Position numbers and translations under genes: made by a program. Shown here piece by piece: positions 2,465-2,699 of a DNA stretch of 12,174 bases. The DNA is taken from IMG/VR virus record IMGVR_UViG_2562617113_000010; one strand, given 5' to 3'. The notes beneath the pieces were generated by a model, which saw only the letters and a list, made by a program, of their open reading frames with translations, ran no database searches and was not told the DNA's origin. The stretch is from a virus (Duplodnaviria > Heunggongvirae > Uroviricota > Caudoviricetes). Positions within the stretch are counted from its first letter, which is position 1. Each line of letters opens with the position of its first letter.

Positions 2465-2576
2465 AACTGAAGTTGCCCTGAAAATGAAATTTTTTTGCAC
2501 AACCGCAGAACTTTTCCGCAGGGCATCAGTCTTAATTAGTGCCACTGCTTTTCTTTGATGTCCCCATTTTGTGGAG

Positions 2577-2620
2577 CCCATCAACCCCGCCATTTCGGTT
2601 CAAGGTTGATGGGTTTTTTG
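2577..2620 (+). terminator. Rho-independent terminator downstream of ybjL
   Basis: Perfect 10-bp stem CCCATCAACC (2577-2586) / GGTTGATGGG (2604-2613) followed directly by TTTTTT (2614-2619). The 17-nt loop is large. Oriented for plus-strand transcripts. Confidence 0.55.
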
Positions 2621-2699
2621 TTGCCTGAAATTTATGCCGTTTAAAATCATGACGTTAGGAGCACTTTTTTTTAACGATGGCGACAAAATGGCGGCAGCG

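Follow-up and report, generated by a model that had tools for sequence, protein, structure and literature searches.

Archer et al. 2011 gave the 'rybB ncRNA' as the place where P2-type prophages are inserted in E. coli W, B and Crooks, and Table 2 of the same work lists P2-type prophages also at the 3' end of the sRNA gene cyaR (PMC3032704). Nilsson et al. 2011 found that prophages PhiECO1, PhiECO2, PhiECO3 and PhiSEN1, from E. coli HS, ATCC 8739, CFT073 and S. Typhi, share one integration-site identity (PMC3448106); the coordinates of PhiECO1-3, in a paper that names neither rybB nor ybjL, appear to fit the ybjL region. In Klebsiella, Hudson et al. 2014 described the island Kpn38RybB as lying 'precisely within the gene for ... 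RybB' (PMC4048246), and Hochhauser et al. 2023 described a hotspot in 109 genomes that holds only Felsduovirus prophages integrated within rybB (PMC10121019). The rybB integration site is an ordinary and common one, and it has already been published.

The attachment site of phage P2 has a common core of 27 nt, and its prophage shows the layout attL-int ... D-ogr-attR; the layout of the prophage studied here is the same, and its core is likewise 27 nt long. Coliphage 186 has its attB in a tRNA-Ile gene and regenerates the 3' end of this small stable-RNA gene (PMC3448106), whereas here the target is the sRNA gene rybB.

The locus studied here was found in a stretch of 12,174 nucleotides from the IMG/VR virus record IMGVR_UViG_2562617113_000010 (hereafter the window), which is 99.975% identical to E. 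coli A38 (NZ_CP028738.1), with three indels. We are highly confident that its 2465-2699 interval contains the ogr-side junction (attR) of a 32.1-kb 186/Fels-2-like prophage of the P2 group, which was inserted by a tyrosine integrase into the 3' end of the host gene rybB, between ybjL and rcdA. We directly observed where host and phage DNA lie, that a direct repeat flanks the prophage, that attP is contiguous in a phage genome, that the host gene is rybB and that an integrase is present at the far end, and no observation was at odds with this reading. The features involved are the following, with no strand assigned where none is given.

779-2464, plus strand: ybjL (aspartate:alanine antiporter), the host gene upstream of the junction (open reading frame list; RefSeq annotation of the A38 record).
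2507-2534, plus strand: predicted sigma-E-type promoter of rybB, with the -35 element AGAACTTTT at 2507-2515 and the -10 element GTCTTA at 2529-2534 (motif match only, in host DNA).
2541-2622, plus strand: rybB sRNA gene, with its 5' end GCCACTGCTTTTCTTT at 2541 and the Rfam model at 2544-2622 (Rfam RF00110, oligonucleotide match, identity to K-12).
2575-2619, plus strand: Rho-independent terminator of rybB, with the stem at 2575-2586 / 2604-2615 and a T-tract (T6) to 2619 (Rfam consensus structure, folding).
2609-2635: att common core ATGGGTTTTTTGTTGCCTGAAATTTAT, 27 nt (anchored comparison, four-way alignment, 27-mer scan, limit of the empty-site matches).
2636-2699: ogr-proximal attP arm, phage DNA (contiguous with the integrase-side arm in Klebsiella phage KP12; arm repeats).
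2645-2657: putative IHF-like motif AATCATGACGTTA.
2678-2685 and 2689-2696: TGGCGACA and TGGCGGCA, candidate integrase arm-type repeats, direct and 11 bp apart.
2700-2918, minus strand: ogr/Delta-like zinc-finger late-gene activator, the phage gene that borders the junction (annotated in the RefSeq records that match; Ogr in KP12 and in Klebsiella phage 4LV2017).

Between the end of ybjL at 2464 and the stop codon of ogr at 2700 there is a gap of 235 bp, and beyond ogr the P2-like D, U, T, E, tube and sheath genes read leftward. When 2300-3100 was used as a megablast query against 5426 complete E. coli genomes, 5419 of them matched; the whole ybjL-rybB-ogr-D stretch was present in 1115 of the 5426 (around 20%), while the remaining matched genomes, K-12 included, aligned to the window only as far as 2635. 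2465-2622 is host DNA, without a single difference from the empty site of K-12; to the right of 2622 the sequence runs on into the P2-like late genes, 2623-2699 being phage DNA that belongs to the ogr-proximal side of attP. The gene order of K-12 is ybjL-rybB-rcdA, with the convergent rcdA located 174 bp past ybjL, whereas in A38 and the window it is ybjL-rybB-prophage-rcdA, in such a way that host synteny is broken at the junction with respect to the empty site. The original prediction, which had placed a prophage-host junction on the int-distal side within 2465-2699, is confirmed by the end of the empty-site matches at 2635 and by the late genes to its right. Its account of K-12, in which ybjL is followed by a short convergent spacer and ybjK/rcdA, was also correct, and the alignment to a prophage-free site that it proposed gave a positive result. 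Its statement that ogr starts 235 bp after ybjL holds for the distance, but ogr is on the minus strand and it ends, not starts, at 2700.

The far end of the prophage was located in A38, where the element measures 32,112 bp core to core and the order at this side is integrase, then core, then rcdA; both the integrase-side end and the shared direct repeat, for which a search had been advised, were found in this way. The 350-aa 'phage integrase' of A38 ends about 75 bp from the core, on the rcdA side, and has homology to the integrases of HP1 and P2. Its identity reaches 99.7% with the integrase of Escherichia phage vB_EcoM-813R9 and 99% with the integrases of a group of Klebsiella phages (Kp48xx), while beyond that group the identity is about 56% with Yersinia/Salmonella P2-group phages, 49% with HP1 and 39% with P2. 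The early region of the A38 prophage is of the cI/cII/fil, 186/Fels-2 kind, and int, cI and the genes for replication, head, tail and lysis are all present in the full-length element.

The completeness of the element bears on the reading that the junction is a fossil, the trace of a defective remnant unable to excise, and not the functional att site of an active phage. It would fit with the annotation of gene D as frameshifted and of one tail gene as partial in A38, with the three mismatches between the 27-nt attL and attR cores, and with the clear degradation of a related copy in AR_0013 by an IS3 insertion. We nevertheless regard it as unlikely, as the 32.1-kb prophage keeps all the gene sets listed above, D is an intact 366-aa open reading frame in the window, and isolated phages carry near-identical integrases (99.7% for vB_EcoM-813R9 and 99% for the Kp48xx phages). 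In any case, this reading concerns the activity of the prophage and not the identity of the junction.

Some additional observations were made on the prophage and its relatives. Gene D is located at 3009-4109 on the minus strand, and the discrepancy between its intact frame in the window and its annotated frameshift in A38, together with the three indels, may mean either that the window comes from another assembly or strain or that A38 contains homopolymer errors. At about 9988-12174 of the window (10813-13059 of the A38 locus, L001) a DNA-invertase gene of the recombinase family lies beside genes for tail-fibre tips (gp53-like) and tail-fibre assembly, arranged in pairs of opposite orientation. 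This arrangement corresponds to an invertible host-range segment of the Gin/Cin type, and the upstream tail-fibre gene of A38 is annotated as lacking its C-terminus, which is what one orientation of the switch would produce. Moreover, some of the ogr-end matches, in 7 to 11 places, are on plasmid-typed records (e.g., NZ_CP148327.1, 42,418 bp), which could represent either phage-plasmids or circular phage genomes that were taken for plasmids in the assembly.

The host gene at the junction was identified as that of the sigma-E-dependent sRNA RybB by several means. The Rfam model RF00110 matched 2544-2622 on the plus strand over its full length (model positions 1-79 of 79) with 105.3 bits, compared to a gathering score of 40, and an E value of 1.6e-22. 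The known 5' end of RybB, GCCACUGCUUUUCUUU (PMC4911921), begins at 2541 of the window, the RybB-16 oligonucleotide, the sequence of which was taken from the same article, matches 2541-2556, and the whole 2541-2622 gene is the same as in K-12. In A38 and K-12 the gene sits in the ybjK(rcdA)-ybjL intergenic region, this spacer being where rybB was placed in an earlier work (PMC1804206). The AGAACTTTT element, followed by 13 intervening nt and GTCTTA, resembles the sigma-E consensus given for rybB (-35 GGAACTTTT / -10 GTCAAA; PMC1804206), so a promoter is predicted there from the reading of the sequence.

The terminator of rybB folds with a dG of -25.2 kcal/mol (z -3.3), and none of 200 shuffled sequences was as stable; a scan of 2350-3050 for consensus terminators gave no match, its loop limit of 3-8 nt excluding the 17-nt loop of rybB. 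The 3' end of mature RybB is presumably within the U-tract, near 2619, and read-through from ybjL may stop at this same hairpin. Another structure, a long imperfect hairpin on the plus strand at 2453-2543, was detected right after the ybjL stop codon, in which GUUGCCCUG pairs with CAGGGCAUC (dG -27.7 kcal/mol, z -3.5). The fold of 2450-2545 that contains it is stable, but without a T-tract downstream; the hairpin overlaps the predicted sigma-E promoter of rybB and could be a 3' structure of ybjL, as a candidate role.

In order to define the att core, both A38 junctions and the K-12 empty site were anchored on their shared sequence, and a four-way alignment was made with the attP of the free phage (KP12). 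In this alignment the order is rybB-core-rcdA in attB, rybB-core-ogr arm in attR (the window), int arm-core-rcdA in attL and int arm-core-ogr arm in attP, in such a way that the flanks swap between host and phage exactly as predicted for the four sites. The first 14 nt of the core, ATGGGTTTTTTGTT (2609-2622), are identical in attR, attL, attP and the attB of this host, being found at 2609 of the window, at 35544 of A38 L001 and at 3310 of K-12 L002, and the free phage attP contains ATGGGTTTTTT. The right half (2623-2635, 13 nt) exists as a phage version, GCCTGAAATTTAT, and a host version, ATCTAAAATTTAT, with three mismatches between them, at core positions 15, 16 and 19. For this host the core is perfect over 14 of 27 nt only, with 24 of 27 positions matching overall.

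The exact 27-mer ATGGGTTTTTTGTTGCCTGAAATTTAT was also scanned in one representative genome per species; it was found at only 6 loci, since the right half of the core varies (GTCTG in KP12, TTTATAC in 4LV2017), and these loci do not constitute a host-range map. The empty attB of Escherichia whittamii and that of Enterobacter sp. kpr-6 contain the full 27-mer, and in Escherichia sp. E1V33 it is directly repeated, without any mismatch, at the two ends of the prophage. Because of these empty sites and of this perfect repeat, the full common core is 27 nt, from 2609 to 2635, an end that agrees with the megablast limit of the empty-site matches. It consists of the last 5 nt of the 3' stem of the rybB terminator, the T6 tract and 16 nt downstream. 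In Klebsiella phage 4LV2017 the annotated attR corresponds to the first 19 nt of the core at the same position of rybB, and attL is likewise annotated. The scan also returned a 724-nt record filed under Actinoallomurus acaciae (NZ_JBHLZP010001226.1, L011), with an Escherichia-type rybB-rcdA empty site carrying the 27-mer, which is almost certainly an enterobacterial contamination of the Actinoallomurus assembly.

These data correct the original prediction on two points. It had described a plus-strand terminator at 2577-2620 as probably the host terminator of ybjL, with the att core and the phage boundary downstream, at about 2621-2699. The strong hairpin is indeed present, but its owner is rybB (RF00110, 105.3 bits), a gene that had been overlooked, and not simply ybjL. 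The host match does pass the hairpin, reaching 2635, and the right half of the core (2623-2635) falls in the proposed range; however, the sequence common to both prophage ends and attP starts at 2609, inside the 3' stem, and 2636-2699 is a phage arm, contiguous with int in KP12. This makes such a layout highly improbable, and its details are ruled out by the four-way att alignment. The core actually lies at 2609-2635, over the 3' stem and T-tract of the terminator, so the earlier placement overshot it to the right by about 12 to 60 bp.

An attP of 414 nt was rebuilt from the two junctions by placing the core between 200 nt of flanking sequence from the int side and 200 nt from the ogr side. 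In Klebsiella phage KP12 (OM835953.1, 30033-30446) the rebuilt sequence lies uninterrupted between int and ogr, with 100% coverage and 97.6% identity. The reading of 2465-2699 as wholly phage-derived, from a phage with its own rybB-like gene and the true junction elsewhere, has a practically negligible probability, as the about 100 nt of rybB-like sequence with which the 4LV2017 record ends, its support, are host flank in a prophage excerpt whose own attR annotation starts at ATGGG, the circular-form attP of KP12 has int-side sequence and not rybB to the left of ATGGG, and 2465-2622 is identical to the prophage-free K-12.

Both arms of this attP carry repeated elements. A 21-nt element, GGCGACAAA(G/A)TGGCGGCAGCG, is located at 2679-2699 of the window and at 35432-35452 of A38 L001, where the copy reads GGCGACAAAGTGGCGGCAGCG and lies inside the 3' end of int. 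The element is composed of two TGGCGRCA repeats 11 bp apart, and TGGCGRCA occurs 7 times in the window, compared to 1.5 expected. The arm consensus of integrases of the 186 group is tgccGCCActt (PMC3448106), and the repeats fit it as reverse complement, with 11 of 11 positions in the int-side arm (AAGTGGCGGCA) and 10 of 11 at 2686-2696 (AAATGGCGGCA). A second copy of TGGCGACA is present 11 bp upstream of each consensus match, giving at least two direct repeats per arm, as in 186-type sites. The arm repeats do not fit the P2-type arm repeat tgTGGaCa. The integrase would bind the TGGCGRCA repeats on both arms, and IHF may bend the attP arm, as suggested by the motifs. The int-side arm also contains CTAACTT(A/G)TTGTTTT, directly repeated in tandem with a 19-bp period (L001 35487-35527), which separates the core from the integrase arm sites and is a candidate site for an accessory factor such as IHF or an Apl/Cox-like excisionase.

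The comparison with P2 integrated at locI, or at locH next to cyaR/ogrK, thus shows differences in the core sequence, the integrase (39% identity) and the arm repeats, which are of the 186 type, and the suspicion that this phage uses an integration site other than that of P2 was right. In support, the 27-nt core of P2, used as query, gave no match at up to 3 mismatches. Coliphage 186 shares with this prophage a tyrosine integrase of the same family and matching arm-type direct repeats that flank the core, although the closest integrases that are not of the rybB type are only about 56% identical to the one found here. By contrast, the Fels-2-like (Felsduovirus)/PhiECO1-type rybB prophages (Rybb*W/B/Cr, PhiECO1-3, hotspot #29, Kpn38RybB and 4LV2017) have the same locus and the same core, and the phages of this group from Klebsiella and E. 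coli have 99% identical integrases and share the P2-like late genes and the cI/cII/fil early region of the 186 type. No essential difference with this group was detected, except for 3 mismatches to attP, out of 27 positions, in the right half of attB in this host, which leave the attL and attR cores identical over 14 nt only. Regarding taxonomy, the close relative 4LV2017 is classified as Elveevirus, and the literature puts the rybB-integrated E. coli prophages in Felsduovirus.

Most likely, the tyrosine integrase inserted the prophage at the 3' end of rybB, where recombination in the left part of the core joined the host rybB to a copy of its own 3' end supplied by the phage. RybB and its terminator are thereby regenerated unchanged, 2541-2622 being identical to K-12. 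Phages targeting tRNA and tmRNA genes follow the same scheme of 3'-end replacement. On the phage side, the bases of the attP core would double as the 3' half of the terminator of int itself, forming a hairpin followed by U6 directly past the int stop codon, in such a way that int would keep its own terminator and the int-side junction would retain a terminator beside rcdA. This weakly supported hairpin (AACCCGUUUAC/AUAAAUGGGUU plus U6) showed a dG of -9 and a z of -2.0, with 6 of 200 shuffles folding as well. The circular int-core-ogr attP would read ...CATAAATGGGTTTTTTGTTGCCTGAAATTTATGCC...

At the three mismatched positions, attR carries the phage version and attL the host version, and because of this the strand exchange and cleavage would take place to the left of 2623. 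Cleavage is probably near the ATGG at 2609-2612, because a rare secondary insertion in ptrR has only AATGG in common with attP. This second site was detected as the same ogr end inside ptrR (yneJ) in five complete genomes. In AR_0013, both junctions and the K-12 ptrR have only those five bases in common with attP (L004 2500-2540; L007 21800-21840; L005 600-630), which suggests an exchange at the left edge of the core, from the AATGG microhomology of ptrR. ptrR also contains the 9-mer ATTTATGCC, which belongs to the right edge of the core, but its distance to ATGG is shorter there than in attP by 10 bp (one helical turn). The AR_0013 prophage in ptrR is degraded, its early region having been lost to the IS3 element. 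It could be speculated, although we consider it very doubtful, that the right half of attB has drifted from attP in most E. coli, that the resulting heterology between the attL and attR cores might lower the efficiency of excision and help to explain that around 20% of the genomes keep the prophage, and that, together with the ptrR site, it could point to an unusual, spacing-tolerant recognition of a two-part core.

For annotation purposes, the boundary of this prophage belongs at 2609/2623 and not past the hairpin. The 79-82 nt that precede the phage boundary are the gene of the envelope-stress sRNA RybB, which is left intact by the prophage, and this same site is a documented hotspot for prophages carrying defence systems in E. 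coli. The insertion at rybB represents one more case of phages that target the 3' ends of small stable-RNA genes and provide a replacement 3' end.
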